64,000 nt of DNA from Bacteroidales bacterium UBA5235 (GCA_002409145.1 DHUL01000037.1:49325-113324); one strand, 5' to 3'. Counted from the first letter of the stretch, positions 1,103 through 54,406 are shown. Numbers and translations are program-made. Notes: generated by a model from the letters alone, not told the origin.

Positions 1103-1513
1103 TTACAGTCCTGTACTCTCCTTAAGGAATTTGCGTGCTGCTTTGCGTTTGTCGGCGTCCATGAGTTTTACGTGCAGGCGGATGGTGCGGCCGTCTTTCA
1201 TGATTATGCGTATAAATCGCTTGTCCTCAGTAATCTCTGCGATCTGCTCAATAGGGAGATGTTTTTTAAAGATTTTTGTGTTCCATCTGATTGTCAGTAT
1301 TCCGTGATCAGCAGTGAGCCGGTTGATAATGGCGCCGAAAATCAGTGTAAAGAAGACTACGGCAGCCAGAATAAAAACCACCACAAGAATCCAGAAGACA
1401 GCTCTTTTAGGACTGTGCATGAAAAGTTGGAGGCCCACAGCGAAGAGCAGCAGTCCTCCCAGGAAGCGGAAGAGATATTCCTGAGCCTTGTCGCGAATCA
1501 CCAGTTGATTCAT
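1103..1513 (-). CDS. small membrane protein, bacterial-PH-like (paralog 2 of 569..979)
   Basis: Same 136-aa length and gap-free alignment to the neighbour, roughly 40 percent identical by eye. Shared blocks: NRLT..G.LTIRW.TK, LPI..I.EI, F.RI.MK.GR.IRL, RKFLKE.TG. Confidence 0.55.
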   Translation of the reverse strand: MNQLVIRDKAQEYLFRFLGGLLLFAVGLQLFMHSPKRAVFWILVVVFILAAVVFFTLIFGAIINRLTADHGILTIRWNTKIFKKHLPIEQIAEITEDKRFIRIIMKDGRTIRLHVKLMDADKRKAARKFLKESTGL

Positions 1514-1950: not shown

Positions 1951-2421
1951 TCAGGCTGGCTGGCCCTGTTGGCTGTACACCAGCAGAGTTATGACACCGA
2001 CGATTATGAAAGCAGCGCATCTGATGGCAGTGGCCCTGTAGAAGCGGTGCCTTTCGCTGGAGTTTCTGATAAGGGCAAGAAGCAGCATCAGTGCTGTGAC
2101 CACCAGGCCACAGTTGATGAGGATTCTTGTCATAGGATAATTGTTCAGGGCAAATAATAATCCCAAAGTCAGTTGAGACAGTCCAAGCCCGGTTCCTGCT
2201 GCAACAACGATTCTCCAGGGTCCCAGACCCTTGTAGGATTCGGAATTGAATATTTTCCGAATCGGAATTTCGTTAAAGAGGGCGAATCCAAGGTAGAGGT
2301 AGACGGTACCCAGCACCACCAGGAAGACAGATGTGATTAGCGAATGGAAAGGCACGTTGAGCAATGCCATCAGGATGCCGATTATGGCTCCGGCGATGAG
2401 GATTAGTTCGGGCTTCTTCAT
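1951..2421 (-). CDS. polytopic membrane protein, unknown function
   Basis: 156-aa ORF with ATG start and about 5 hydrophobic segments. No motif recognised. Confidence 0.55.
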   Translation of the reverse strand: MKKPELILIAGAIIGILMALLNVPFHSLITSVFLVVLGTVYLYLGFALFNEIPIRKIFNSESYKGLGPWRIVVAAGTGLGLSQLTLGLLFALNNYPMTRILINCGLVVTALMLLLALIRNSSERHRFYRATAIRCAAFIIVGVITLLVYSQQGQPA

Positions 2422-2575
2422 ACTTTTGGATTAGAGACATTTGACTTTCGATGATAATTTGGTAATCTGGTACTAAGTTATTATATTATTGTTATCAAAT
2501 CAGTTACAGCCAATATTCTTCTGCGATGAAATTAATAAACCTGCCAACACTTTGTACAGACTCTTTAGTAAGGTT

Positions 2576-3058
2576 TTAAACAAACATATTATATAATGAG
2601 GCCAGGAAATTATCCATGGCGTGAAGAATGAAAACCAGGATTATTGCATCTTCCTTTCTGTATCTTCCAAGGTAATATGCTAAGGCATAAATTATTCCAA
2701 CCAAAAACGTAATTAATACATAAAGAAAACTGTATGTATGATTCAATGCAAACGCCAGAGAAGAAGCTAATACTGCAATCCAGATGTTCTTCCATGGTCT
2801 TTTAACGATCTTACAGATAATTTCAATTATTAATGATTGAAACAAAAGCGTTTCTATGATTGGAACAGCTATAACCGCAATTAACAGATCAATAACGATA
2901 TTATCTGTTTTCCAGTAACCTGCCGACTCAGGTTCCGGTAAAAATGTGGTTATTGCAGCCAGCAATAAAGTAGGAACCAGGAATATTAAAATATATTTAA
3001 TAGTCGGAACCTTAATCAAATAACTGACTGAAAAGATATGTATTGAACCTTTATGCAA
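2576..3058 (-). CDS. CPBP/Abi family intramembrane protease-like protein (bacteriocin self-immunity type)
   Basis: 160 aa, polytopic. Motif 2 is FALNH and motif 3 is LHAMDN. Motif 1 is degenerate (IETLLFQ instead of EExxxR). The track start is TTG, so the start is uncertain. Confidence 0.6.
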   Translation of the reverse strand: MHKGSIHIFSVSYLIKVPTIKYILIFLVPTLLLAAITTFLPEPESAGYWKTDNIVIDLLIAVIAVPIIETLLFQSLIIEIICKIVKRPWKNIWIAVLASSLAFALNHTYSFLYVLITFLVGIIYALAYYLGRYRKEDAIILVFILHAMDNFLASLYNMFV

Positions 3059-3111
3059 CTATTATGAATTTAGCATTACATAGTCCTTATGACCGTTATT
3101 AAGCAGAATTG

Positions 3112-3486
3112 TCATCCTTTTTTGAAGAAAATGCTAACAACCATGAGATTTATTCCGATGGCTATCACTGTGCCAATCAGAGTACCCAGTATATCATGGA
3201 AATCGAAAGTAGCCCATGGAAGAAATATCTGAATAAACTCATAGGCTGCTAAACCCAAACCAACCGACAAGATTCCCCAAATCCTGGGTTTGATTGTTCT
3301 GTAGTCTTTGAACCAAATGAATAACGAAGAAATAGTCAATACTCCACCAGTATTAGCTGAAGTATCATGAATGAAACCCATAGTAGCATTGTGATGAGGA
3401 AGAAACCTCATCAGTGTAACTCCCAGGGAGGTCAGGATAAAGAAAGCAATAAACAGGAATAAATCAGTGTTCCTTGGATCAGTCAT
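3112..3486 (-). CDS. VanZ-like membrane protein
   Basis: Track ORF 3112..3519 begins at TTG. I prefer the in-frame ATG at 3486 (MTDPRNTD...). Four hydrophobic segments. YEFIQIFLPWATFDFHDILGTLIG resembles the VanZ E..Q.F.P....D..D....G pattern. Confidence 0.5.
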   Translation of the reverse strand: MTDPRNTDLFLFIAFFILTSLGVTLMRFLPHHNATMGFIHDTSANTGGVLTISSLFIWFKDYRTIKPRIWGILSVGLGLAAYEFIQIFLPWATFDFHDILGTLIGTVIAIGINLMVVSIFFKKG

Positions 3487-3549
3487 TATTATGTAAGTGT
3501 TTAATCTTAAGTAGCACAAACTTTCAAGTTTTCCGGAAAATGAAAAGAA

Positions 3550-3738
3550 TCATTCTTTCTTTCTCTTGCGGGACAGGGAAATCCATCCTAAAACAACCAC
3601 TGATCCGGTAGCATAAAGCAGCACAGATGTTGCCTTAGAGAGGTTAGCCATGTCACTTAATAACCAATAGTAAGTCATCATGATGACATACAACAGGGAA
3701 ATCAGGGCAAGTGCAATTTTAAGAACTGTTCTGTTCAT
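3550..3738 (-). CDS. 2-TM mini-protein with a polybasic tail
   Basis: Track ORF begins at TTG (3753). The in-frame ATG at 3738 gives 62 aa, MNRTVLKIALALISLLYV...LSRKRKKE. Confidence 0.45.
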   Translation of the reverse strand: MNRTVLKIALALISLLYVIMMTYYWLLSDMANLSKATSVLLYATGSVVVLGWISLSRKRKKE

Positions 3739-4178
3739 GTTGTATAAATTCAAGTCGATTTATGCAGGAGAAAATCGATCATCTACAGATTCAGTATGTT
3801 AAAGATAAGAATTTATCACGTTTGAGAGCAAAGATTGCCGCTGATCGGACTTCTTCTGTCACATTACTGGTAAGCTATAATTGGTAGAGGTTTTCCTGCT
3901 GTGTTCCTGCTCCCTGGTTTTATCCAGATTGGTTTTATAATAGGCTTCACAGAAGATAGCTTTAAAACTCCGGGTGTTCTATTTATAGTTGGCGAATAAC
4001 TGGATCAGAATCAAAACAACCACTCCTCAGTGGAACGGTCAGATCTCTTTTAGTAATTTTTTTTGAATAGATGTTTTCATGAAAGGAGCAATAAACCAAG
4101 TGAAGAGTGAATATACACTATGCCAATAGGAAGATAGACATTAGGCACTATTCGATGGCAAGTTATTCTGTACTAAAC

Positions 4179-4370
4179 CTATTCCCTATTTCTCCTTTTT
4201 ACCCTTCTTCTATACTCAATAAGTAATGAATTTATCAATCCTCCAACCAAAAGAATAATAAACAAAATATTATCAGTTTTAGTCAGGTCCTCAATAAAGA
4301 TCAACTTGTAAAGAATATAGACTGCCAAAGCAACTAAGATGACAAATACAATTGTAGTAACAGTTCTCAT
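4179..4370 (-). CDS. 2-TM mini-protein with a polybasic tail
   Basis: 63 aa with ATG start. Two hydrophobic helices, tail EYRRRVKRRNRE. Lies immediately downstream of the two GG-leader peptide genes. Confidence 0.5.
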   Translation of the reverse strand: MRTVTTIVFVILVALAVYILYKLIFIEDLTKTDNILFIILLVGGLINSLLIEYRRRVKRRNRE

Positions 4371-4483
4371 TTCAGTAAAATAACTGAAGAAAGCCTACTT
4401 TGTTTTTACCACAGAATTTGGGTTTTAACGAAATAACCCTAATGTTCCTAAATGACAAAAACACTTAATAAACCCTCTTTTAG

Positions 4484-4672
4484 TTAATCTAGTGTGGCTG
4501 CCTTGTAAATTATACAGCCTATTCCTGCAGCCTTTACTATGACATAACCCACCCCAGATAATGCCAAGAGGGGAGAGATAATATTAGCAACACCTACTGC
4601 AACACAAAAGCCATCCCAAAAGTTACCTCCTTGAGTTTCACTTAACTCATCATATGTTAGAATCCTTATCAT
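4484..4672 (-). CDS. double-glycine-leader peptide precursor B (bacteriocin-like)
   Basis: 62 aa. Leader MIRILTYDELSETQGG (DELSxxxGG type). The 46-aa core NFWDGFCVAVGV...GIGCIIYKAATLD has 2 Cys. ATG start. Sits 11 nt after precursor A and downstream of the C39 ABC exporter. Confidence 0.7.
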   Translation of the reverse strand: MIRILTYDELSETQGGNFWDGFCVAVGVANIISPLLALSGVGYVIVKAAGIGCIIYKAATLD

Positions 4673-4683
4673 AATTCTTAGTA

Positions 4684-4890
4684 TTATTCTACGACAATTC
4701 CTTCACTTTCCCAATATTTTTTCGCAGCAAGGGCTGCTGCACAACCAACTGCAGGTGCAGCTGCTAAAGGTGCCAAAACAAACCCAAAGCAAGCAATCAT
4801 AGCAGCTGAACCGCATAGTAATCCAGTTAGAGTGCTGAATTTTAATCCACCATTTACTGTTTCCATTTGACACGTCTGAAGTTCTTTCAT
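4684..4890 (-). CDS. double-glycine-leader peptide precursor A (bacteriocin-like)
   Basis: 68 aa. Leader MKELQTCQMETVNGG has hydrophobic residues at -4 (V), -7 (M), -12 (L) and -15 (M) relative to the GG. The 53-aa hydrophobic core has 3 Cys. ATG start. Confidence 0.7.
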   Translation of the reverse strand: MKELQTCQMETVNGGLKFSTLTGLLCGSAAMIACFGFVLAPLAAAPAVGCAAALAAKKYWESEGIVVE

Positions 4891-5080
4891 AGCGAGACAA
4901 TTTTAACTTTCACCTACTCTATTATTGGCTTTTCGGTTTCTGCCTGCAGACGAAAAATGTTAAATTCCATCTGCATTATCAAAGTAAAAACAGTGCAGTC
5001 CAATAATACAGGATTGGCGTATTTTTCTTCCTGCCGAACCTGGTTTTTGTTTGCTGATAATACACCTGGCGGTTGAAAAT

Positions 5081-7276
5081 CTAAGCCTTAATCTGCTTTG
5101 CCAGATCAAATTCCTCCCAAAACCTTTTGTAAAGGTTCTCCTTCATCAACAGCTCGCTATGGGTTCCTGAAGCTGTTATGGTCCCTCCCTCAAGAAGGTA
5201 AATCCTGTCACATATTTTCCTGATAATATTAATTCTGTGAGTAACGAGCAGTATTCCAACTGAAGCCCTGATCCTCATCAGAATTTTCAATATGAGAGAT
5301 TCTGTATCCCGGTCCATTCCTGAGGTGCCTTCGTCAATGATCAAAATATCAGGATCATTGAACAATGTTCGCATGAATGCAATTACTTGTTTTTGACCCC
5401 CTGACAGCTTGACACCTTCTTCTCCGGTTAATGTGGCAAATCCAAGTGGCAAACTATTAACGAATTGTTCAAGTCCGAATTCAGCGGTCAACCGTACAAG
5501 TCTGGCAATTTTGGTCTCATCAGGATCAGGAATAATGTTTTCTAGGACTGTCCCATTGAAAATATGAACATCCTGAGGGATAAGACCAATCGACTTGCGC
5601 CATTTAGCCATAGGTATTTCCTGATGTGCAGAATGATCATTCACTGTTATAACACCAGATTCAGGGTCATAAAAGCGCATCAGGATATTGACCAGAGTGC
5701 TTTTCCCCGAACCGGATTCGCCAACCAATGCGACAATCCTGCCCTTCCTGATCTCAAAACCTATATCCTTTAACAGCAGCTTTTGTCCAGGGAATCGAAA
5801 TGAAATACCCTTTAATCCTATACCGACAATATCAGGAAAATCTTCCTTTAGATCTGCAGGGATTTCCTCCGCCTTCAACTGGGTAAATTCAAACATCCTT
5901 TCAAGCGCCACCTTCGCCTCACTCAAAGGAATGGAAACGAGGGCCAGGTTTAAAACTGAAGGCAGCAGGGTCGAACTAAGTGTAATGATAGCCATCAGTT
6001 CGCCCTGGGTCATCCTCGTCCCCATAACTTCAAGCGATGTGAATAACAGTAATCCCATCAGATATAAGGTCCCCGCCAGGTTGGTAACTATGCCCAGCTT
6101 AATTTTAATCTTGCCAAGAGAGAATGCCCTCTCCTGAAACAAACTGAAAATTGATTTATTCCTGCCCTCATAAAAACTCTGCCACCCCATGCTCTTAATC
6201 TCCGTAATTCCCTTTAAAGTGCTGATGAAGTTACTTTCGTTGAGCGCATAACCCGCCATCAGATCCTGCTGGGATTTTATCACTGGTTTATTCCATTTGT
6301 GAACCAGGAGAAAAAACAATGGGACTGCTGTAGTCGAGATTGTTCCGGCGATCGTAGAGTAAGACCAAATCATTGCCAACGTTATCAAAACAATCAGACA
6401 ATCTATTACATAAACACTGACCACTTCGGAAATAACCCGCTGAATCCTGAGAGTATCATTAAGACGGGCAACCATGTCCCCCGTTTTACGTGAATCGAAG
6501 AATGGCTTTGGCAAACCAAGCAGCGATCTGTAGAATCCATCAACGACCCTGATATTGTATGTCTTGCCCTGGGATAATAACGTCGTCTGACGGATAGCGG
6601 TAAGTACCACCCTCACAGCAAGAAGCATGAACACTAAAACGATTGAAACGATCAGCATCCGATTATTGCCGGATGGCAAGATATCATCCAGTAATTTCTG
6701 TGTAAAGACTGCCATTACAACTCCAAGCCCGGAAACGAGAATGCCAACAAAAAAACTAGCAGTCAACAATTCAATATCGGGTTTGACAGTTTCAGCTATC
6801 CACTGACGCTTCCTTCTTATCGTTGTTTCATGATAGGTAAAATTCTTCCCTGGAGCAACTGCAAGGCATTTATGGCTCAACCAGATTTTTTCAACTTCAT
6901 CCCGGGTTCTTAAAACAAGTCCCCGGGCCGGATCCCAGATTATGAATCGGTTATCTATATAACCATACGATACAACATAATGCTCGTATCCCTTTCCCGG
7001 GGTTACGTGAAGGATCAGAATCCCGGTATACTCAGTAATATTTTTTATAGTAGCCTCATAGCCTGTAGCTACCATACCTGATGACTTGGCAGCCTGATAC
7101 AAACCCAGCATGGTTGTCCCTGACTGGCTTGTGCCGCTCAATAGGCGTATCTGATCAATAGTTGAATCCCCTCCAGAATACCTTATGATTGATGCAAGGC
7201 ATGCTGCTCCACAGTCTGTAGAGTCGTGCTGCAACAATGAGACCTCCTTAATCCTTTTTAGATTAATCGCTGTCAT
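5081..7276 (-). CDS. peptidase-C39-containing ABC transporter (PCAT; GG-leader peptide processing and export)
   Basis: 731 aa. C39 catalytic Cys in HDSTDCGAACLASII, with His/Asp context EHYVVSYG...IWDPARG. Six-helix TMD. Walker A GESGSGKST, signature LSGGQKQ, Walker B ILIIDEGTS. Confidence 0.92.
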   Translation of the reverse strand: MTAINLKRIKEVSLLQHDSTDCGAACLASIIRYSGGDSTIDQIRLLSGTSQSGTTMLGLYQAAKSSGMVATGYEATIKNITEYTGILILHVTPGKGYEHYVVSYGYIDNRFIIWDPARGLVLRTRDEVEKIWLSHKCLAVAPGKNFTYHETTIRRKRQWIAETVKPDIELLTASFFVGILVSGLGVVMAVFTQKLLDDILPSGNNRMLIVSIVLVFMLLAVRVVLTAIRQTTLLSQGKTYNIRVVDGFYRSLLGLPKPFFDSRKTGDMVARLNDTLRIQRVISEVVSVYVIDCLIVLITLAMIWSYSTIAGTISTTAVPLFFLLVHKWNKPVIKSQQDLMAGYALNESNFISTLKGITEIKSMGWQSFYEGRNKSIFSLFQERAFSLGKIKIKLGIVTNLAGTLYLMGLLLFTSLEVMGTRMTQGELMAIITLSSTLLPSVLNLALVSIPLSEAKVALERMFEFTQLKAEEIPADLKEDFPDIVGIGLKGISFRFPGQKLLLKDIGFEIRKGRIVALVGESGSGKSTLVNILMRFYDPESGVITVNDHSAHQEIPMAKWRKSIGLIPQDVHIFNGTVLENIIPDPDETKIARLVRLTAEFGLEQFVNSLPLGFATLTGEEGVKLSGGQKQVIAFMRTLFNDPDILIIDEGTSGMDRDTESLILKILMRIRASVGILLVTHRINIIRKICDRIYLLEGGTITASGTHSELLMKENLYKRFWEEFDLAKQIKA

Positions 7277-7784
7277 ACAAATACTTCATTATTGTTTCCG
7301 GCTTAACCGAGCCTCTGAATATCTTAACAAGCCGAAGACTGTCGTTGTATATAAAATTGGCCGGAATGATATTAGCTCCAAACAATTCACTCAATTTTAA
7401 ATCAGGATCATGTATTATATGTAGATGCGATGTATCTATGATTTTGAAATCCTTAAGAAAAGATCTGATCTCAGATTTTCCAGCGTAACTTACCAGGATG
7501 ATTCTGGAATTGCAGCTTTGGGAGTCATTGGATATAAGAGAGGAAATTTCATACCTGCAATGATCACACTCCGGGTGAAAGAAAGTGATCAGTAAGGGTC
7601 CCGATGTAAGCCAGGAAGTATTGAATTCTTCCCCATTGATATCAGTCAATACTAAATCCGGCAGAATCCTGATCCTTTCCAATGCGCCTTCCACCCGTGA
7701 CTTGCGTGTGAGAATAGCTACAATCAACAATACAATAATGATTATCGGGATCAACAGTAAGAATTTCGCAATTCTCCGTTTCAT
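7263..7784 (-). CDS. membrane-anchored thioredoxin-fold thiol-disulfide oxidoreductase (TlpA/ResA-like)
   Basis: 173 aa. N-terminal anchor FLLLIPIIIIVLLIVAIL. CxxC in FFHPECDHCRYE. Its 3' end overlaps the PCAT start by 14 nt. Confidence 0.75.
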   Translation of the reverse strand: MKRRIAKFLLLIPIIIIVLLIVAILTRKSRVEGALERIRILPDLVLTDINGEEFNTSWLTSGPLLITFFHPECDHCRYEISSLISNDSQSCNSRIILVSYAGKSEIRSFLKDFKIIDTSHLHIIHDPDLKLSELFGANIIPANFIYNDSLRLVKIFRGSVKPETIMKYLYDSD

Positions 7785-8437
7785 GGCATTGCATCAATTG
7801 TTAAAAACATAATAACCGCGATCCATACTGCGACAGCGGGAACATAGGTCGATAAAACAACCTTATCCGCCGCCCCCTTCCTTATTGATCCGATTCTGGA
7901 TAGGCCGAATGCAAGCAGCAATACATAAAGTGCCTGAAAAATGTTAACGCTCTGCAGGGGATAGATCCAATAGGATGCGACTTCTGACCGGCTGAAAAGA
8001 TTAATCAATGACAGCGGATAAAAGAAACTAATATCTTCAAGTGTGTAATTACCAGCAAAAAAAATAAACCATAACAGTTTCATCACCGAAGCCAAAATGA
8101 ACACTATTTCGCACAAGACGACTACTTTAAAGATCTTACCTAGAGTAATCTCCTTGTGCAGATCGCTGAAGAATGCACCTATAAATAAAACCACACTCAA
8201 GGCAGAAAATTTGAGAAGTAGCAATATAGGTGTAATTGCATAGGTCACCCAGGAATATGATTTCATCCTGTAAAAGAGCTCCATCGATCGTTCGTATGTC
8301 AGCTGCTCGCTGTAGGTATTGAAAAAGACGATTTCATCAATCAGAAGTGTTTGAGAAGCGATAAGGAAAAGTATGTCTATCATTACTATCCCGGAAAACA
8401 GCTTCCACCCTCTTAAAGACAAGGCTCTGGCAATCAT
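7781..8437 (-). CDS. polytopic membrane protein of unknown function, coupled to the redoxin gene
   Basis: 218 aa with ATG start and about 5-6 hydrophobic segments. ATGA 4-nt overlap with the downstream redoxin gene. No motif recognised. Confidence 0.6.
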   Translation of the reverse strand: MIARALSLRGWKLFSGIVMIDILFLIASQTLLIDEIVFFNTYSEQLTYERSMELFYRMKSYSWVTYAITPILLLLKFSALSVVLFIGAFFSDLHKEITLGKIFKVVVLCEIVFILASVMKLLWFIFFAGNYTLEDISFFYPLSLINLFSRSEVASYWIYPLQSVNIFQALYVLLLAFGLSRIGSIRKGAADKVVLSTYVPAVAVWIAVIMFLTIDAMP

Positions 8438-8512
8438 ACCTTCATTATTAAGAATCTATCTTCAAACCAAGGATATGCACTTCAGTAATGCGCATTTATA
8501 GTCTTAACTTAA

Positions 8513-8758
8513 TTAATGTCCCTCCATAACCTTCTCTACTTTTATTACTATCCTTCTGGAATCACCATAGTAGTAGGATTCCCGAACATTGGAATACCTG
8601 ATATCAACACCCATCCCTTTCATCTCCTGAAGGGTTTCAAACAGCATTGAACGACTTAGATTCATCTTGTACGCAAACTCCTCTGGCGGACCGGTTGCCT
8701 TCATGGCAATAAGAGAGTCCATCCGTTGCAAACGTGCAATGTATTTTGACAACGACAT
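8513..8758 (-). CDS. small HTH-domain protein (putative locus regulator)
   Basis: Track ORF starts at TTG (8788). The in-frame ATG at 8758 gives 81 aa, MSLSKYIARLQRMDSLIAMKATGPPEEFAYKMNLSRSMLFETLQEMKGMG. This is the wHTH-like pattern of small Bacteroidota HTH proteins found next to peptide clusters. Confidence 0.5.
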   Translation of the reverse strand: MSLSKYIARLQRMDSLIAMKATGPPEEFAYKMNLSRSMLFETLQEMKGMGVDIRYSNVRESYYYGDSRRIVIKVEKVMEGH

Positions 8759-8785
8759 GATTACTATTTTAGAAATGCAGCACTT

Positions 8786-8793
8786 CAAATTTA
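8786..8793 (-). promoter_or_regulatory. candidate Bacteroidota -7 promoter box TAAATTTG
   Basis: The rc of caaattta is an exact match to TAnnTTTG. It ends 28 nt upstream of the HTH ATG at 8758. Confidence 0.3.
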
Positions 8794-8996
8794 AGAAGGG
8801 TTTTTAAGAATGTCAACACTGCTTGCAAAATATTTTGATATATGGTTCTTCGAGATGACTTTTTATAACAATCATGGTTCCTGCCGACTGAGGTCATAAT
8901 CAAGATCCTGACTTGAGAATATCTTAGATTTACTTGACATGAGCAGTCAAATGGCGTAAATTTATATGGCATTACTGGGGAGAAACCTAAAAATCA

Positions 8997-9443
8997 ATGC
9001 CTATGAAAAAGACTGCCGTTCTCTGCTCACTGCTCCTGATTATGCTCGTGGCATGCAAGCAGGAGCCACTAAATCCTGTCATTGGCGCATGGGACCTGTT
9101 CTATGCCAAACAGGTGGTAAATGACTCGGTCGTAGCCATATACCCGGACACCTACCAGGGAAGCCAGGTAAAAATGTGGTGCAATAACTACTGGATGTTC
9201 GTCGGGCAATATAAACAGGATACCATCATATCAGAAAGCTATGGCGGCGGATCCTATACGCTCGAGGGAATCGTCTATAAAGAAACCATCGAGTACCACG
9301 TCACCGGTGATTTCATCGGGAAAACCTTAAGAATGAGAATCGTTGTCGCCAATGATACCCTGATACAGGTGTGGCCGGCCGACGAAACAGGTGAAGTGGA
9401 TAAAAGCAATTACTGGTCCGAAAAATACGTCAGGGTGAAATAG
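8997..9443 (+). CDS. lipoprotein, unknown function
   Basis: 148 aa. Signal peptide plus lipobox LLIMLVAC. The second ATG at 9003 (MKKTAV...) may be the true start. Confidence 0.6.
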   Translation: MPMKKTAVLCSLLLIMLVACKQEPLNPVIGAWDLFYAKQVVNDSVVAIYPDTYQGSQVKMWCNNYWMFVGQYKQDTIISESYGGGSYTLEGIVYKETIEYHVTGDFIGKTLRMRIVVANDTLIQVWPADETGEVDKSNYWSEKYVRVK

Positions 9444-9527
9444 GGGTGTCAGTGACCCGTCAGGCGGGACAATGCTGGACGATCTGTGATCAACGCCGTA
9501 ATTATTGTCACTTGGACTACAATTCTT

Positions 9528-9594
9528 AAAGGCCTGCGGCCTATATACATCTTTTGGCATTCTGTGCTGCAATGCTGAAAGGCCTACGGCCTAT
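9528..9594. repeat. two copies of a 17-nt hairpin motif (aaaggccTGCggcctat / aaaggccTACggcctat) exactly 50 nt apart
   Basis: Copies at 9528-9544 and 9578-9594, 16/17 identical. Each has a 5-7 bp stem (aggcc/ggcct) and a 3-nt loop. They lie between convergent genes, and copy 2 overlaps the stop codon of 9591..10118. Confidence 0.35.
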
Positions 9595-10118
9595 TTGGCC
9601 AGGAGCTTTACCAGCTTTTCATGCAACTGTACTGACCAGGTCTCTATTTCCGAATGACCCCGGTTCTCGGCTTCACGAAGTAACCCAAGCAACAGCCGCA
9701 GTTTGAATTTTGACCGCTCACCGGGCTGCGCTGCCTCCCTGCTGTCAGCCTCACCACTGAAGAATCCTTCACTAACAGTATGAACCATACCCCTTACATG
9801 AGAAGTGTATTGCATGATCACCATTCGCGACTCAGCCCCTCTATCTGTACTGAGCGACGGAATGACAGTAAAAATGGCAAAGGGCTTCTTGCCCAACACC
9901 GACTGGTTCCGCCTGACAAACTCCATCGCCTCCGGAACCCATCCTCCACCCTGCTCCTGGCACCCGGCAATCACAGCCGAAAAAACTTTTACCCCTGACA
10001 CCCCGCTCATAGGCCTGAGCGTCACCTCGGCACCCAGGCCGGTCAACACCCGGGCCACTCGCTCAGCCACACTGGCTGCCAGCCCGGACGTACCTGCATG
10101 AGTTACAAGAATCTTCAT
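9591..10118 (-). CDS. flavodoxin-fold protein (HemG/flavodoxin_5-like)
   Basis: 175 aa. MKILVTHAGTSGLAASVAERVARVL...FSAVIAGC...KPFAIFTV follows the flavodoxin-like beta-alpha pattern. ATG start. Confidence 0.55.
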   Translation of the reverse strand: MKILVTHAGTSGLAASVAERVARVLTGLGAEVTLRPMSGVSGVKVFSAVIAGCQEQGGGWVPEAMEFVRRNQSVLGKKPFAIFTVIPSLSTDRGAESRMVIMQYTSHVRGMVHTVSEGFFSGEADSREAAQPGERSKFKLRLLLGLLREAENRGHSEIETWSVQLHEKLVKLLAK

Positions 10119-16373: not shown

Positions 16374-17222
16374 TCAATGAACAACCCTGAACATGTCATT
16401 GAAAATCAACTCCTGCGCCTTAGTCATCACCTCCTGGGTGCCGGCAAGGATGGGGCTGTCGAACAGCACATCATAGCCCGGGGCGCTGAATGACCGCCAC
16501 GTTCCGGCCGGGGTACCGGCTGTCTCCGCTCTGTTGGAGGTAGTCACCGGCTCCAGTCCTGTTGAGACGGTGGTCCATCCGGGATACAGATCAAGGGTGA
16601 TATGACTGGGCTCAGCCAGTGCATCTTCCGGGTAAAGAAAGAGGGCTGCCGGTACGATGAAAGCATGGGTGGTATCAATGAAAGCATCAGCAACAGAGTG
16701 GCTGTTGCCGTAGATCACCCATGAAGCCGTCAGTTTGTCTGCGCCACCGGTGGCCACCTTCCAGATATTCTTTGATGTCTTCAGAAAGTGACATTCCCTG
16801 CCTGTGGCATCCCTGATCTCCAGCCGGCTCAGGTTCTTCGGGTAGTTCTGTATCCAGTAATAACCCGGAGTCCATACGGGCATTTTCAGCACAAGCGTAT
16901 CTGTCATGACACCGTCAAGGGTCATCGTGATCCTGAAATTATGGTTCACAGCATCATTCATTGATACCATGTAGTTTATAATAAGCTCACCCGACAGGGA
17001 GGCGGGTGAAATACAACCTTCAATTGGGGTAGAAGAGGTGGCCGTGGCCGGTAAGCCAGGGGAAACGAGTGCCGGGGAACCTTCGGAAGCCGCCTGCATA
17101 ACACTGGCAGTGCAACCGGCAAGGGTAGCAGAGGAAACGGAGAAGCCCAACACCATGTTGACAATCAGCGTCAGTAATCTGGATCGAAACAGGATTGCGT
17201 CAGGCCCGGATAGAATATTCAT
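16374..17222 (-). pseudogene. M61 glycyl-aminopeptidase N-terminal domain only (truncated gene or stand-alone remnant lipoprotein)
   Basis: The track start is GTG at 17285. ATG 17222 gives a signal peptide plus lipobox (SSATLAGC). FRITMTLDG...LKMPVWTPGYYWIQNYPKN...YDVLFDSPILAGT matches the M61 N-domain. The ORF stops about 20 aa later, before any HExxH catalytic domain. Confidence 0.5.
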
Positions 17223-17424
17223 AGTGTTAATGATAAGATGCTTTATTGACATAAGGTGCACAAGACATAAAAGTAGTAAAATCACCTCAACAGATTACCG
17301 GGTATGATGAGTAAGATATAATTTGGGGATGAGAGAGTCTGTACTACATCCATTACAGAATTTTCAGCCGGATGAAGGAGTAGTAAAACAGGAGGAAATC
17401 TGTTTCAATTTCCTCCTGTCTGAA

Positions 17425-17817
17425 TCAGTAATTTACCATAAAACAAAAACCGTCTTTCGATTCCTTCTGCGAGAGGTATCCATTCTTCAGGATCCAGCGG
17501 CATCTGAAGGCGTCATAATCATAAATTGCATTGAAAAAACTAACATATTCCGTCAATGAGTTAAGATGATCAGGAAATATGAAAGCATAATCGCACCTTT
17601 CATCAGAATCAAATAAACAGGTAATTGAAGTCTGTTCACAATCAAATCTTATTTCTACAGATATCTGTCTTTCTTCCTTCTCATAAAAGTCCATGAAACA
17701 TATTGGGTATTGATTAAACCTTTCCCAGATTTGTCGACCAGATAATCTAAGTAATGAACTTGCATGTGCAACCAGACCGGGGAACATTTTCAGATTAGAA
17801 AGATTTTCAGGTAGCAT
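17425..17817 (-). CDS. hypothetical acidic, Cys-rich cytoplasmic protein
   Basis: 130 aa with ATG start. No signal peptide or TM segment, no recognisable motif. Located in a lower-GC patch. Confidence 0.45.
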   Translation of the reverse strand: MLPENLSNLKMFPGLVAHASSLLRLSGRQIWERFNQYPICFMDFYEKEERQISVEIRFDCEQTSITCLFDSDERCDYAFIFPDHLNSLTEYVSFFNAIYDYDAFRCRWILKNGYLSQKESKDGFCFMVNY

Positions 17818-18159
17818 GTCAGTCCGTGTTAGTTCCTGTAGTCCCAGATACAGGTGTATTATATAGGGGAAGCGTGGGACAATAGTATTCCTTTCGGGAC
17901 AGCCGGTACTTCCGTGTTTTAATTAACTGGTCCGGGCTCAGCTCATGTTATGTTATTTCCCGGTTGCACGAACTAACAACCAGGAAATGGAATGAACAGC
18001 CTTTATAACCGTTAACTGAATGCGGAATTTCACCTGCCGGTTATCCGGTAAAGGTTATTAACTAACGCTCCCGTTTGACAAATAACAGGTTAAATGTAAA
18101 AAAATAATACATTAAGTCAGCCATTTATTACCTTTAGTCGTTCAAAATAATCTGCTTAC

Positions 18160-19119
18160 ATGAAAAAGTCTGTAAAATATCTGCCGCGGGAGAAACAAGA
18201 AGACCTGAAATATATTGTTAGCATGATTCTGGAGAGAATCCCTCGTACTGAAATGATAATACTGTACGGCAGTTACGCCACCGGGAAGTATGTTGAATAC
18301 GACACTCGTGTTGAATTCGGTGTTCGTACCACCTATATGAGTGATTATGATATACTTGTCGTGACGAGTGGTGAAAAGGATAAGGAAGTCGGTCAGAAAC
18401 TTGATAATATCGAAGCTATTTACTATAAAAATCATAGCATTAGCGATATTCTTTACGTAGGTGAAACCGGCAGTATGGAAGTGATATCCGGCAGGTCCTC
18501 AGACAGGCAAACACCGGTACAGTTCATTAATGAAGACATCAGGAAATTGAACAGGGATCTGTCGGATGGCAGGTATTTTTATACCCAGATTAAAGAAGAG
18601 GGTATTCTGTTGTACAACAGTGGTAAACATAAACTCGAAAGACGCCGGAAACTGCGTTTTGATGAGATTGCTAAACAGGCTGCGGAGTATTTTGAAGAGA
18701 AATTCAACAGGGCTTCTGTATTTATAAAACATGCCAGGTATGCATTTAAGGATAAAGACTATGGGATGGCATCTTTTTTTCTCCACCAGACAATTGAAAA
18801 CCTGTTTTACGCCGTGAGGTTGGTTTACACCCTGGAAAACAATAAGATGCATAATCTGATAAAACTGCTGGCATCGGTAAGGAAGTACTCGGGTGAGTTT
18901 GAGAAACTATTCTTCCCGGAAAAAACAGAAGATGAGAAAAGGTTGTTTAACCTTGTAAAGGCTGCATATGTCGAAGCCCGTTATAATCCGGATTTTGTGG
19001 TGACAAAAGCTGATGCAGAGTATCTGATCTCTGTGGCAGAAAGGCTTTTTAAACTTGTTGATGAGCTTTGTCACATAAGGATCAGCGAGTATGAGAAATC
19101 GGCGTCTTCTGCAGCCTGA
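18160..19119 (+). CDS. fused nucleotidyltransferase (MNT-like) and HEPN domain protein
   Basis: 319 aa. NTase motif ILYGSYATGKY...SDYDILVV. C-terminal HEPN-type helices (FFLHQTIENLFYAV, KMHNLIKLL, AYVEARYNPDF). Confidence 0.75.
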   Translation: MKKSVKYLPREKQEDLKYIVSMILERIPRTEMIILYGSYATGKYVEYDTRVEFGVRTTYMSDYDILVVTSGEKDKEVGQKLDNIEAIYYKNHSISDILYVGETGSMEVISGRSSDRQTPVQFINEDIRKLNRDLSDGRYFYTQIKEEGILLYNSGKHKLERRRKLRFDEIAKQAAEYFEEKFNRASVFIKHARYAFKDKDYGMASFFLHQTIENLFYAVRLVYTLENNKMHNLIKLLASVRKYSGEFEKLFFPEKTEDEKRLFNLVKAAYVEARYNPDFVVTKADAEYLISVAERLFKLVDELCHIRISEYEKSASSAA

Positions 19120-52884: not shown

Positions 52885-53856
52885 TCAATCTACTCTGAAT
52901 CCGGAGAAATAACCCTTTTCTAGTCCTGTTAGATAATCAGTGGTGTTCCGTACCAACACTGTGATGGTATGAGAAGGTGTCAATCTCATGGTAATGCTGC
53001 CCGATGAAATACCAGCGGTTGCTGAATTAATGATCACCTCTTCGCGATCATCCACAATTTTCAGGATGACCCGTATACCACTGGGAATATCCATGGCTAC
53101 ATTAAAAGTGTAAATCCCCTCAAACGGTGTTCTGAATTCGCCGGTAGTCGGGTTGTAAGCTCCGCCGATATTAAAATTTGACCCTGTAGTGGCATTATCA
53201 AACTTTACCTGCACCTCTCCTTTGGCAGGGAGGGGTATTGTGGTTCCATCACCAAGGCTTGCCCTGAAGGCAACCATCGGCTCGAGAGTTGCTGAACTGC
53301 CTCCGGTGATGGTAATAGTCCTGGTTGCAGGATTGTAACCCAGGTCCTGAAGTTCATTTTCCGGATCGGTGTCAATGGTGATGGATTTGTTGATCCCGGA
53401 AATGGATAGTTGGTTATTGTTAACCGTCAGTTCCTGCAGAAGAGTCTTCCCTGCATATAATGCATAAGGCACTGACATAAAAGAGATTGTGCCCATTCTT
53501 TTCCATCCGTTGCCAAGGTCTATGTCTACCTGAAGTGAATGGTTTCCTGTTGACCAGTCGATGGCATGAAAAGTGCCATTGAGCGCCTCTCCCTTACCTA
53601 TGATAAGAGAGAATACACCGTATTGTGATGTAGTAGTATGGTGAAGCTCCTCGTAAACCGAGGTTTCACCTGCAAGGATGGAGAATTTCACATCAATGGA
53701 TTCATTTTTGATCTCCCCGCTTGCATCACGGGCCACAGCCTGATAATGTATCCCCGGAGGAACTGTTCCTGTTCCCTGTCCCCTGACGCGACACTCGCTT
53801 CCTGCAAGAAAGAGTCCCATCAGTAATAATAAACCTATACCTTTCTTCATCATCAT
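52885..53856 (-). CDS. secreted protein with a C-terminal C1q/TNF-like globular domain
   Basis: The track ORF has a 24-aa upstream extension. ATG 53856 gives MMMKKGIGLLLLMGLFLAG. The C-terminus N-IGGA-Y-NPTTGE-F-RTPFE-G-I-Y-T-F fits the C1q signature core [ND]-x4-[FYWL]-x6-F-x5-G-x-Y-x-F as I recall it. The middle carries tail-fibre-like ...NQLSISG...ENELQDL. Confidence 0.6.
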   Translation of the reverse strand: MMMKKGIGLLLLMGLFLAGSECRVRGQGTGTVPPGIHYQAVARDASGEIKNESIDVKFSILAGETSVYEELHHTTTSQYGVFSLIIGKGEALNGTFHAIDWSTGNHSLQVDIDLGNGWKRMGTISFMSVPYALYAGKTLLQELTVNNNQLSISGINKSITIDTDPENELQDLGYNPATRTITITGGSSATLEPMVAFRASLGDGTTIPLPAKGEVQVKFDNATTGSNFNIGGAYNPTTGEFRTPFEGIYTFNVAMDIPSGIRVILKIVDDREEVIINSATAGISSGSITMRLTPSHTITVLVRNTTDYLTGLEKGYFSGFRVD

Positions 53857-53860
53857 CGTT

Positions 53861-54406
53861 TTAAATCTTGAGTATCTTCGCCTCAGCGGCTTGACCATCA
53901 GACCGCACAACCCTGACCAGATAAACACCCCTGGACCATCCTTCCATATCTACCATAGTCTTGTAGAAAAAACTGCCTGATGAGTACGTACTCCAGGCAT
54001 CGACAGAAATATTAAGCACTTCGGCGTATACGATGGATCCGGTGAGATTGACAATAACAATTTCATAAGTCCATGGGAGCGCAGCACCGGCAAACAGTTC
54101 CAGGATAAGTTTATTCCTCAGGTCATTCTCCTTGGAGACAGGATTGGGATAAAACTTAACCCCGCTATCCTCCGGTACTCCTGGTTTCTGAATGATGCTG
54201 GGTTGCTGGAATCCCTGTGTCAGAACTGTGTCCTCCTCCCCGACCAGCTCAACCATAACCTCCCCGATAGTATGCTGGTAATAAATATGGCCGTTAGCTA
54301 TGTAATCTACTCCTGCACCCGACACGATCACCCTGTGAGACAGCTCCTGTGAAAGTACCGATGCAGACATAAGAGCCAATGCCGTACACGCTAACAACCC
54401 CTTCAT
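53861..54406 (-). CDS. small secreted protein with a T9SS C-terminal sorting domain
   Basis: Track ORF 53861..54829 carries a 141-aa extension overlapping the flippase gene. ATG 54406 gives signal peptide MKGLLACTALALMSASVLSQ. LTQGFQQP motif. C-terminal FYPNPV...GVYLVRV...KILKI is a type-A T9SS CTD pattern. Confidence 0.6.
   Translation of the reverse strand: MKGLLACTALALMSASVLSQELSHRVIVSGAGVDYIANGHIYYQHTIGEVMVELVGEEDTVLTQGFQQPSIIQKPGVPEDSGVKFYPNPVSKENDLRNKLILELFAGAALPWTYEIVIVNLTGSIVYAEVLNISVDAWSTYSSGSFFYKTMVDMEGWSRGVYLVRVVRSDGQAAEAKILKI

Follow-up and report, generated by a model that had tools for sequence, protein, structure and literature searches.

A predicted bacteroidetocin-type peptide export module of an uncultured Bacteroidales lineage and the membrane protein family that accompanies it

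How a peptide exported by an ABC transporter of the peptidase-containing type (PCAT) leaves a diderm cell, and what role is played by an essential polytopic membrane protein encoded beside the transporter, are two questions standing since 2019 that are raised again by a locus in a stretch of 64,000 nucleotides (nt) from Bacteroidales bacterium UBA5235 (GCA_002409145.1, DHUL01000037.1:49325-113324; the whole stretch is hereafter called the window). Three consecutive genes encode here a membrane protein of 218 amino acids (aa), referred to as the transmembrane (TM) protein after its published counterparts, an anchored thioredoxin-fold protein (the redoxin) and a PCAT, and they are followed by two small precursors with double-glycine (GG) leaders (Table 1). 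The analysis described below indicates that the locus is very likely an operon for production and export of bacteroidetocin-type ("class IIf"-like) peptide toxins; it comes from an uncultured Bacteroidales lineage, with metagenome-assembled genomes (MAGs) of Rikenellaceae as its nearest relatives.

Bacteroidetocin loci were described as sets of four genes, encoding a protein with five transmembrane segments, a GG peptide, a thiol oxidoreductase and a C39-ABC transporter, and their products were proposed as class IIf (Coyne et al. 2019, Nat Commun 10:3460, PMC6671954). In that work, deletion of the TM, oxidoreductase or peptide gene attenuated toxin activity, a sensitive strain gained no protection from the TM protein expressed in trans or from the oxidoreductase, and the four bacteroidetocin B genes sufficed for toxin activity in E. 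coli; the oxidoreductase is present in most, not all, of the published loci, and release by lysis, in place of active passage across the outer membrane, was left possible. According to its Supplementary Data 2, orthologues of the TM protein are encoded in 35 Bacteroidetes genomes; among these is Tenacibaculum gallaicum DSM 18841, with C7448_RS13025 (PMC6671954). The architecture of the module is, in consequence, already known from Coyne et al. 2019, and what is new here are the size of the family, a confident five-helix model that lacks a solved analogue, a sub-threshold likeness to Yip1 and the absence of any conserved Cys.

The connection between the window and these loci was established through two of them. 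The T. gallaicum locus combines two GG peptides and a TM protein of 210 aa with a redoxin and a PCAT, and BLASTP aligns this TM protein with the 218-aa protein at 36% identity (E 5e-43). The bacteroidetocin B locus, recovered from gut metagenomes by means of a cloning primer published by Coyne et al., has genes for a TM protein, a peptide, a redoxin and a PCAT (221, 57, 173 and 707 aa, respectively); its peptide has a 15-aa leader and four Cys, in line with the published description, and two more primers from the same authors translate to the C-terminus of its TM protein. A TM family profile built on 69 sequences aligns with the bacteroidetocin B TM protein from end to end (hhalign, 97.6% over 201 columns), and the same pair reaches 63.2 bits by hmmsearch, where none of 1000 shuffles scored above 6.3 bits. 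The PCAT is 29% identical to that of bacteroidetocin B over its full length (E 6e-106), and the redoxin 26% identical to the corresponding thiol oxidoreductase (E 5e-7), both having 173 aa. Since TM protein, PCAT and redoxin are all homologous to bacteroidetocin B components, the locus is assigned to the bacteroidetocin-type modules, and it combines the features that characterize them, namely a C39-containing PCAT, a TM orthologue, an oxidoreductase, and GG leaders of 15-16 aa followed by at least two Cys. On these sequence grounds, the 218-aa protein is the "TM protein" of a bacteroidetocin-type system, in a relation to the bacteroidetocin B protein that only profile methods detect.

The genes themselves are tightly packed. 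At the first junction (7781-7784) the sequence reads ...GCAATGCC-ATGA-AACGG, so that the TGA of the 218-aa open reading frame (ORF) overlaps the ATG of the redoxin, the frames being GCA ATG CCA TGA for the TM gene and ATG AAA CGG for the redoxin. The second junction (7263-7276) is read as TAT GAC AGC GAT TAA in the redoxin frame and as ATG ACA GCG ATT AAT in that of the PCAT. A PCAT start well downstream of this ATG is precluded by the C39 catalytic motif HDSTDCGAAC, whose first residue is number 17. Similar overlaps recur in related loci, the 4-nt TM/redoxin overlap being common to 18 of them, and redoxin/PCAT overlaps ranging from 8 to 14 nt (14 nt in six loci, 11 nt in eight), although these figures come from longest-ORF calls in which some starts are possibly placed too far upstream. 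The coordinates and both overlaps given in the original prediction are thus reproduced by direct reading of the sequence, and its proposal that the three genes constitute one coupled export module agrees with these overlaps as well as with the synteny presented below.

Regarding the individual products, the PCAT exceeds the Pfam cut-offs for Peptidase_C39 (87 bits), ABC_membrane (100 bits) and ABC_tran (106 bits), and matches the NCBIfam model bacteriocin_ABC with an E of 2e-100. The redoxin matches AhpC-TSA with 32.1 bits (Pfam cut-off 26), and aligns over the full length of the NCBIfam ResA/StoA models with scores far below their cut-offs. A hydrophobic N-terminal anchor at residues 8-26 and the motif CDHC were read directly in its sequence, and CxxC, mostly in the form C-[DE]-[HYF]-C, is found in 67/67 redoxins of the related loci. 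It is accordingly classed as a TlpA/ResA-like, membrane-anchored thioredoxin-fold oxidoreductase, for which the role of an oxidase is presumed.

The two precursors downstream of the PCAT show the organization expected for its cargo. In precursor A, MKELQTCQMETVNGG precedes the predicted cleavage site and LKFST... follows it, giving a 15-aa leader that ends in ...QMETVNGG and a hydrophobic mature part of 53 aa with three Cys; in precursor B, MIRILTYDELSETQGG is followed by NFWDGFC..., with a 16-aa leader ending in ...ELSETQGG and a mature part of 46 aa with two Cys. Both mature peptides are extremely hydrophobic and Gly/Ala-rich. The Bacteriocin_IIc family is matched weakly by precursor A (E 0.03) and at E 0.005 by precursor B. 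Homologues of A occur downstream of the PCAT in six related loci and homologues of B in eight; the leader of A resembles that of a T. gallaicum peptide, while the leader and the FWxxFC start of B match a T. gallaicum peptide adjoining the TM gene. Because similarity is limited to the leader and first residues of the T. gallaicum peptides, the cargo is, by sequence, not a bacteroidetocin A-D homologue, the module itself being nonetheless a member of the bacteroidetocin type. When a stricter leader filter was applied to the related loci, 49 of 57 unique mature peptides had exactly two Cys, which fits the formation of one dedicated disulfide in each of them.

Some further features of the peptides were observed. 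Small-xxx-small motifs are present in the adjacent peptides A and B (AVGVA, SGVGY and AAGIG), whose arrangement resembles that of a two-peptide (class IIb-like) bacteriocin pair, and the pair co-occurs in six related loci (L002, L005, L006, L010, L014 and L025). The same locus is present in four public contigs (L088-L091), three of which leave both GG peptide genes uncalled, these being called in the record of the Joint Genome Institute (JGI) alone. Such gene calls agree with the report by Coyne et al. that ~46% of peptides of this kind are unannotated (PMC6671954).

To define how far the module extends beyond the window, a profile from a 17-sequence subset of the TM family was used, by which 268 loci were found in GTDB species genomes; comparisons refer to the best 80 of these 268, 69 of them with enough downstream sequence. 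Judging by their titles, the 80 belong almost entirely to Bacteroidota (Bacteroidales, Cytophagales, Flavobacteriales, Sphingobacteriales and Chitinophagales), two MAGs being titled Clostridiaceae and Rickettsiales. A redoxin accompanies the TM gene in 65/69 loci and a PCAT in 66/69. The co-occurrence of the family with both, to which the original prediction had pointed as informative, is borne out in 64/69 loci, all 64 of which have the three genes on one strand with the TM gene first, the redoxin second and the PCAT last. Small ORFs resembling GG-leader precursors accompany the module in 51/69. In Bacteroidota, the cassette is therefore much more widespread than the literature records (35 genomes, 19 peptides), reviews up to 2025 still counting 19 bacteroidetocin-like peptides (PMC11901371, PMC12219008), and its cargo is very diverse, mostly with two Cys; this extends a published count and does not reveal a new kind of system. 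As separate observations, the TM, redoxin and PCAT matches of L023 and L025 (Bacteroidales, Rikenellaceae MAGs) are fragmented or short, suggesting pseudogenisation, and glycosyltransferases of EryCIII-like/UDPGT type, which might modify peptides, adjoin the module in 5/80 loci.

The TM protein is the least familiar component. Neither Pfam nor NCBIfam provides a match for the 218-aa protein, even at E ≤ 10, apart from a 17-bit KGW match that was discarded as spurious. Its 351 close homologues are named hypothetical without exception, and an exhaustive profile search (E ≤ 1e-3) collected 935 representative clusters at 50% identity, nearly all of 205-235 aa. The AlphaFold2 (AF2) model, calculated from the 69-sequence alignment, is of high confidence (predicted local distance difference test, pLDDT, 96.1; predicted template modelling score, pTM, 0.89) and consists of five long helices, with residues 32-61 and 127-165 forming two structured loops. 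A Foldseek search of this model against PDB and BFVD gave no match below E = 1, nor did the family profile match any PDB sequence at E ≤ 10. The family consensus scores 23.3 bits (E 6.4e-5) against Pfam Yip1 (PF04893), along model positions 21-172 of 173 and below the gathering threshold of 28.6 bits; two further loci score 20-22 bits, 3/69 members reach E < 0.01, and the window protein itself has no Yip1 match at E ≤ 10. Such values suggest a remote kinship with Yip1 and not membership in it.

Within the 69-sequence alignment no Cys is conserved, the best column having Cys in 28/69 sequences, and the single Cys of the window protein is a non-conserved one. Conserved motifs lie in the long loops 1 and 3 (SEQLSYE, YTLxDLQxFYPLS and YPLQxxNxFE). 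As both of these loops carry a net acidic charge, and the short loops, like the N-terminus, a slightly basic one, the positive-inside rule favours an N-in topology with the conserved surface oriented toward the periplasm. We infer that the conserved face would then lie on the same side as the redoxin domain and the exported peptide. Across the related loci, the identity of TM proteins to that of the window goes together with the identity of the PCATs (r = 0.98) and does not track the peptide repertoire, with a mean of 68.8% in loci sharing the window's peptide family versus 71.1% in close loci with other peptides. Both the correlation and the lack of a peptide-linked rise fit a part of the machinery better than they would a cargo-specific immunity protein. 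The original prediction had considered the 218-aa protein possibly novel and without recognisable motifs, a view replaced by its assignment to the published TM protein family; the profile searches supply this link to bacteroidetocin B, while family searches in Pfam/NCBIfam and fold searches in PDB and BFVD return nothing. The suggestion that it serves export as an accessory factor, as opposed to being unrelated to it, gains from the requirement of its published homologue for toxin activity.

Pfam scans of 36 of the 54 window ORFs of at least 150 aa, among them housekeeping and SusC/D-type genes, revealed no HlyD, MFP or OEP/TolC domain, the unscanned ORFs being mostly inside or overlapping larger ones, together with a few free-standing ones of 157-231 aa at 24.0-26.6, 36.1-36.8, 44.5-46.6 and 60-63 kilobases (kb). 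The statement of the original prediction that no HlyD/TolC pair is linked to the module thus holds among the scanned ORFs. In the flanks of the 80 related loci (123 ORFs of 280-560 aa), HlyD and OEP are absent among the 25 most frequent of 177 Pfam families. As these flanks lack a recurrent HlyD/OEP, the absence appears as a property of the whole family and not of the window alone.

Taken together, a mechanism can be proposed for the locus. The minus-strand operon would comprise, from 5' to 3', the winged-helix-like gene, the TM, redoxin and PCAT genes, the two GG precursors, and small membrane and CPBP genes that may give immunity. By the established PCAT mechanism, the C39 domain would cut the 15-16-residue leader after GG while the peptide crosses the inner membrane, and the anchored redoxin would form its single disulfide on the periplasmic side, as Coyne et al. 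also deduced for their system (PMC6671954). A dedicated redoxin would be needed because Bacteroides lack a general disulfide-bond machinery (PMC6671954, citing Dutton et al.). The 218-aa protein is envisaged as a required, cargo-independent part of the machinery, serving disulfide formation or export, and not as an immunity protein, on the basis of genetics available for the bacteroidetocin B homologue; its presumed site of action is the periplasmic side of the inner membrane, together with PCAT and redoxin, where it may receive or hand over the very hydrophobic peptide. With no dedicated adaptor or channel in the module, exit through the outer membrane could take place by lysis, in vesicles or through an unlinked channel.

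A more specific version can be formulated, in which TM protein, redoxin and PCAT make up a secretion and maturation machine specific to Bacteroidota, with the TM protein in the place of the HlyD adaptor, the peptide received at the periplasmic face, disulfide formation coupled to this step, and an exit other than TolC (vesicles or the outer-membrane leaflet). We regard this version as rather unlikely. If true, it would represent a distinct and widespread way of peptide export in diderms (at least 268 GTDB species), and the first biochemical role for a bacterial Yip1-like protein. In either case, experiments can be guided by the structural model, by the conserved motifs of the predicted periplasmic loops and by the exclusion of a DsbB-like role.

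Several points weigh against the assignment of the locus and of its TM protein as given above. The 218-aa protein and the bacteroidetocin B TM protein give no signal in pairwise BLASTP, their kinship being remote, and K76, E110, PLS and YPLQ, conserved in the window subfamily, are not kept in the bacteroidetocin B protein. The loss of these positions would favour a role in scaffolding or binding over one in catalysis, and makes the transfer of function from one protein to the other an inference. A physical contact of the TM protein with PCAT and redoxin is likewise conjectural, and the topology of the TM protein is deduced from loop charge and the AF2 model. Regarding the cargo, the window mature peptides have no similarity to bacteroidetocin B in BLASTP and are far more hydrophobic, so a toxin target and activity are assumed for them by analogy. 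Finally, the adaptor/TolC scan spans the 64-kb window, and an unlinked adaptor or TolC may exist elsewhere in the genome.

Four other explanations were considered. A self-immunity function of the 218-aa protein, protecting the inner membrane from the hydrophobic peptides by blocking their insertion or a receptor, appears quite improbable. It would suit a polytopic protein encoded in a bacteriocin island, and leaderless and circular bacteriocin clusters of Gram-positive bacteria repeatedly contain Yip1-domain proteins, for which roles in immunity or transport have been put forward (PMC11580447); moreover, the window peptides are membrane-peptide-like, unlike bacteroidetocins A/B, and a negative test made with the BamA-targeting bacteroidetocin B may not transfer to them (PMC8546649). 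Nonetheless, the immunity option of the original prediction loses ground, given that the bacteroidetocin B homologue is unprotective in trans and that TM identity follows the PCAT. Deletion of this homologue, besides, lowers toxin activity (PMC6671954), the gene is translationally coupled to redoxin and PCAT and kept with them in 64/69 loci whatever their peptides, loci with the same peptides are no closer in TM sequence, and better immunity candidates are at hand in the CPBP/Rce1-like protein and the small membrane proteins of the island. Position, with the TM gene directly upstream of the redoxin and overlapping it by 4 nt, together with the need of the redoxin for an oxidant, Bacteroides being devoid of general disulfide machinery (PMC6671954), would alternatively suit a membrane redox partner, an analogue of DsbB/VKOR that re-oxidises the redoxin as in the pair BdbB/BdbA. 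DsbB and VKOR, however, require conserved Cys pairs, and the family has neither a conserved Cys nor sequence or fold similarity to them; this DsbB/VKOR-like role is extremely improbable and was rejected on account of the missing conserved cysteines.

The two remaining explanations concern the fate of the peptide. Were the system an ordinary type I secretion system, with its HlyD-type adaptor and TolC-type channel encoded elsewhere, the 218-aa protein would be an additional part that the system could do without, a reading that we consider improbable. TolC is commonly unlinked in Proteobacteria, and the inspection covered 64 kb of the genome; still, the adaptor is normally linked to the PCAT in Proteobacteria, and the flanking ORFs of the related loci offer no HlyD/OEP among their 25 most frequent families. 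In addition, the four bacteroidetocin B genes are active in E. coli in the absence of a cognate adaptor, and the TM gene is needed for activity in that system (PMC6671954). There is also little chance that the peptides are not released toxins at all but are delivered to the producer's own periplasm or membrane, for instance in signalling or as membrane-resident components. The extreme hydrophobicity and Gly/Ala-richness of their mature parts would be compatible with such a destination, as would the lack of an outer-membrane component among the scanned window ORFs and the frequent flank families, and active secretion across the outer membrane could not be demonstrated by Coyne et al. (PMC6671954). 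Against it, the related bacteroidetocins A-D kill from outside (PMC6671954; PMC8546649), bacteroidetocin A at least by targeting surface-exposed BamA (PMC8546649), the island carries immunity-type genes (CPBP protein, small membrane proteins), and the repertoire is highly variable between close loci, a pattern expected of antagonistic toxins. Production and export of bacteroidetocin-type toxins is, for these reasons, the explanation retained here.

The module lies in a low-GC (guanine plus cytosine) stretch at ~2 to 10 kb (about 2000 to 10000) of the window, with 38-44% versus about 50%, whose further genes are included in Table 1. Directly upstream of the TM gene, the 81-aa winged-helix-like gene is present in 25/25 Bacteroidales loci (L001-L025) with 51-90% identity; among the twelve closest loci the range is 82-90%, a conservation above that of the TM protein or the redoxin. 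Its family has 81 members, some of them called 'biotin operon repressor' by JGI, and the near-invariance of its first residues speaks for a start at the ATG of 8758. The AF2 prediction is of low confidence (pLDDT 55) and gives only an H-H-H-H-beta-beta pattern. This protein is probably the regulator of the operon and the product of its first gene. Upstream of it, TAAATTTG matches the Bacteroidetes -7 promoter consensus TAnnTTTG and is given as a candidate; a scan for sigma-70 promoters and terminators was uninformative for a Bacteroidales genome.

Table 1. Features of the module and of the surrounding island, in window coordinates
Feature	Position	Strand	Basis
TAAATTTG, candidate -7 promoter match	8786-8793	minus	read by eye; 28 nt upstream of ATG 8758
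81-aa winged-helix-like protein	8513-8758	minus	weak birA_repr_reg match (BirA-N-type helix-turn-helix, HTH)
218-aa polytopic membrane ("TM") protein gene	7781-8437	minus	ORF call
ATGA stop/start overlap, TM gene/redoxin gene	7781-7784	minus	sequence read directly
173-aa anchored CxxC thioredoxin-fold protein (redoxin) gene	7263-7784	minus	ORF call, CDHC
14-nt overlap ATGACAGCGATTAA, redoxin stop/PCAT start	7263-7276	minus	sequence read directly
731-aa PCAT gene (C39 peptidase, transmembrane domain, ATPase)	5081-7276	minus	ORF call, Pfam
GG-leader precursor A, 68 aa	4684-4890	minus	translation
GG-leader precursor B, 62 aa	4484-4672	minus	translation
63-aa two-helix membrane protein, candidate immunity/accessory	4179-4370	minus	translation; putative function
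160-aa CPBP/Rce1-like (Abi-type) intramembrane protease homologue, candidate immunity gene	2576-3058	minus	Pfam Rce1-like, 47.5 bits
156-aa polytopic membrane protein, distal end of low-GC island	1951-2421	minus	ORF

Downstream of the precursors, the 63-aa membrane protein gave no match in the family search and has homologues after the peptides in five related loci. The CPBP/Rce1-like protein was found in three related loci; Abi/CPBP proteins are tied to bacteriocin immunity. Homologues of the 156-aa protein, without a Pfam or NCBIfam match, lie downstream of the module in nine related loci. Signs of a mobile element were sought and not obtained: no tRNA was found in 1-12 kb of the window, and related MAGs share the synteny of the upstream flank (flavodoxin, MutL, rhomboid).

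Other observations concern genes outside the module. A predicted 148-aa lipoprotein (signal ...LIMLVAC; 8997-9443, plus strand), encoded between the flavodoxin and HTH-like genes, matches no family and keeps its position in six related loci. Two tandem ORFs of equal length (136 aa; 569-979 and 1103-1513, minus strand), with no function assigned, precede a TonB-dependent receptor and a DUF4249 protein that lie beyond the left end of the window (L088 17875-20657), and none of these shows signs of belonging to the export module. The M61 peptidase gene (16374-19119) encodes the N-terminal domain alone (~300 aa) in the window, likewise in the JGI contig, whereas one public contig retains the full-length gene of 597 aa (L088 271-2064 vs L089 1-2064); a HEPN-domain gene adjoins the shortened version, in what looks like a strain-level rearrangement or insertion. 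Finally, a 347-aa protein (52885-53928, minus strand) carries a C-terminal C1q match of 36.9 bits (E 4.9e-9), above the Pfam cut-off, for a domain not known to be common in bacteria.

The system can be compared with several known ones. Proteobacterial exporters of class II microcins (CvaB PCAT, CvaA adaptor and TolC) also rely on a GG-leader-cleaving PCAT in a diderm cell, the CvaAB-TolC system having been described in PMC12219008. In contrast to them, neither a linked adaptor nor a nearby OEP gene was found for the window family, and it has a TM protein and an anchored redoxin, both of which the microcin systems lack. The sublancin operon of Bacillus subtilis encodes the PCAT SunT, the thioredoxin-like BdbA and the DsbB-like membrane protein BdbB, and thereby combines, as the window locus does, a PCAT, a protein of thioredoxin fold and a small membrane protein of polytopic type for a disulfide-containing peptide. 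BdbB is, however, a Cys-dependent DsbB homologue, while the 218-aa family has neither conserved Cys nor DsbB similarity. Proteins of the Yip1 family are, like those of the 218-aa family, five-helix membrane proteins of ~200 aa, and both families are tied to bacteriocin clusters; the consensus and some members of the 218-aa family align to almost the entire Yip1 model, below threshold.

The bacteroidetocin A/B loci have the same four functional parts as the window locus and, like it, no linked adaptor or outer-membrane gene. In them the peptide gene lies between the TM gene and the redoxin, whereas in the window two peptides come after the PCAT, and the bacteroidetocin B peptide is charged and has four Cys, in contrast to the hydrophobic window peptides with two or three Cys, unrelated to it in sequence. 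Relative to these loci, the clade of the window adds the conserved winged-helix-like gene upstream. Another published relative is the T. gallaicum locus (C7448_RS13025/13030). It differs from the window in having its peptides upstream of the TM gene, a redoxin that reads as two ORFs in the assembly, and an extra 138-aa ORF between redoxin and PCAT; its TM protein and PCAT are nonetheless 36% and 45% identical to those of the window, and it likewise encodes two tandem GG peptides, one of them beginning with DFWGSFC, comparable to the NFWDGFC of window precursor B.

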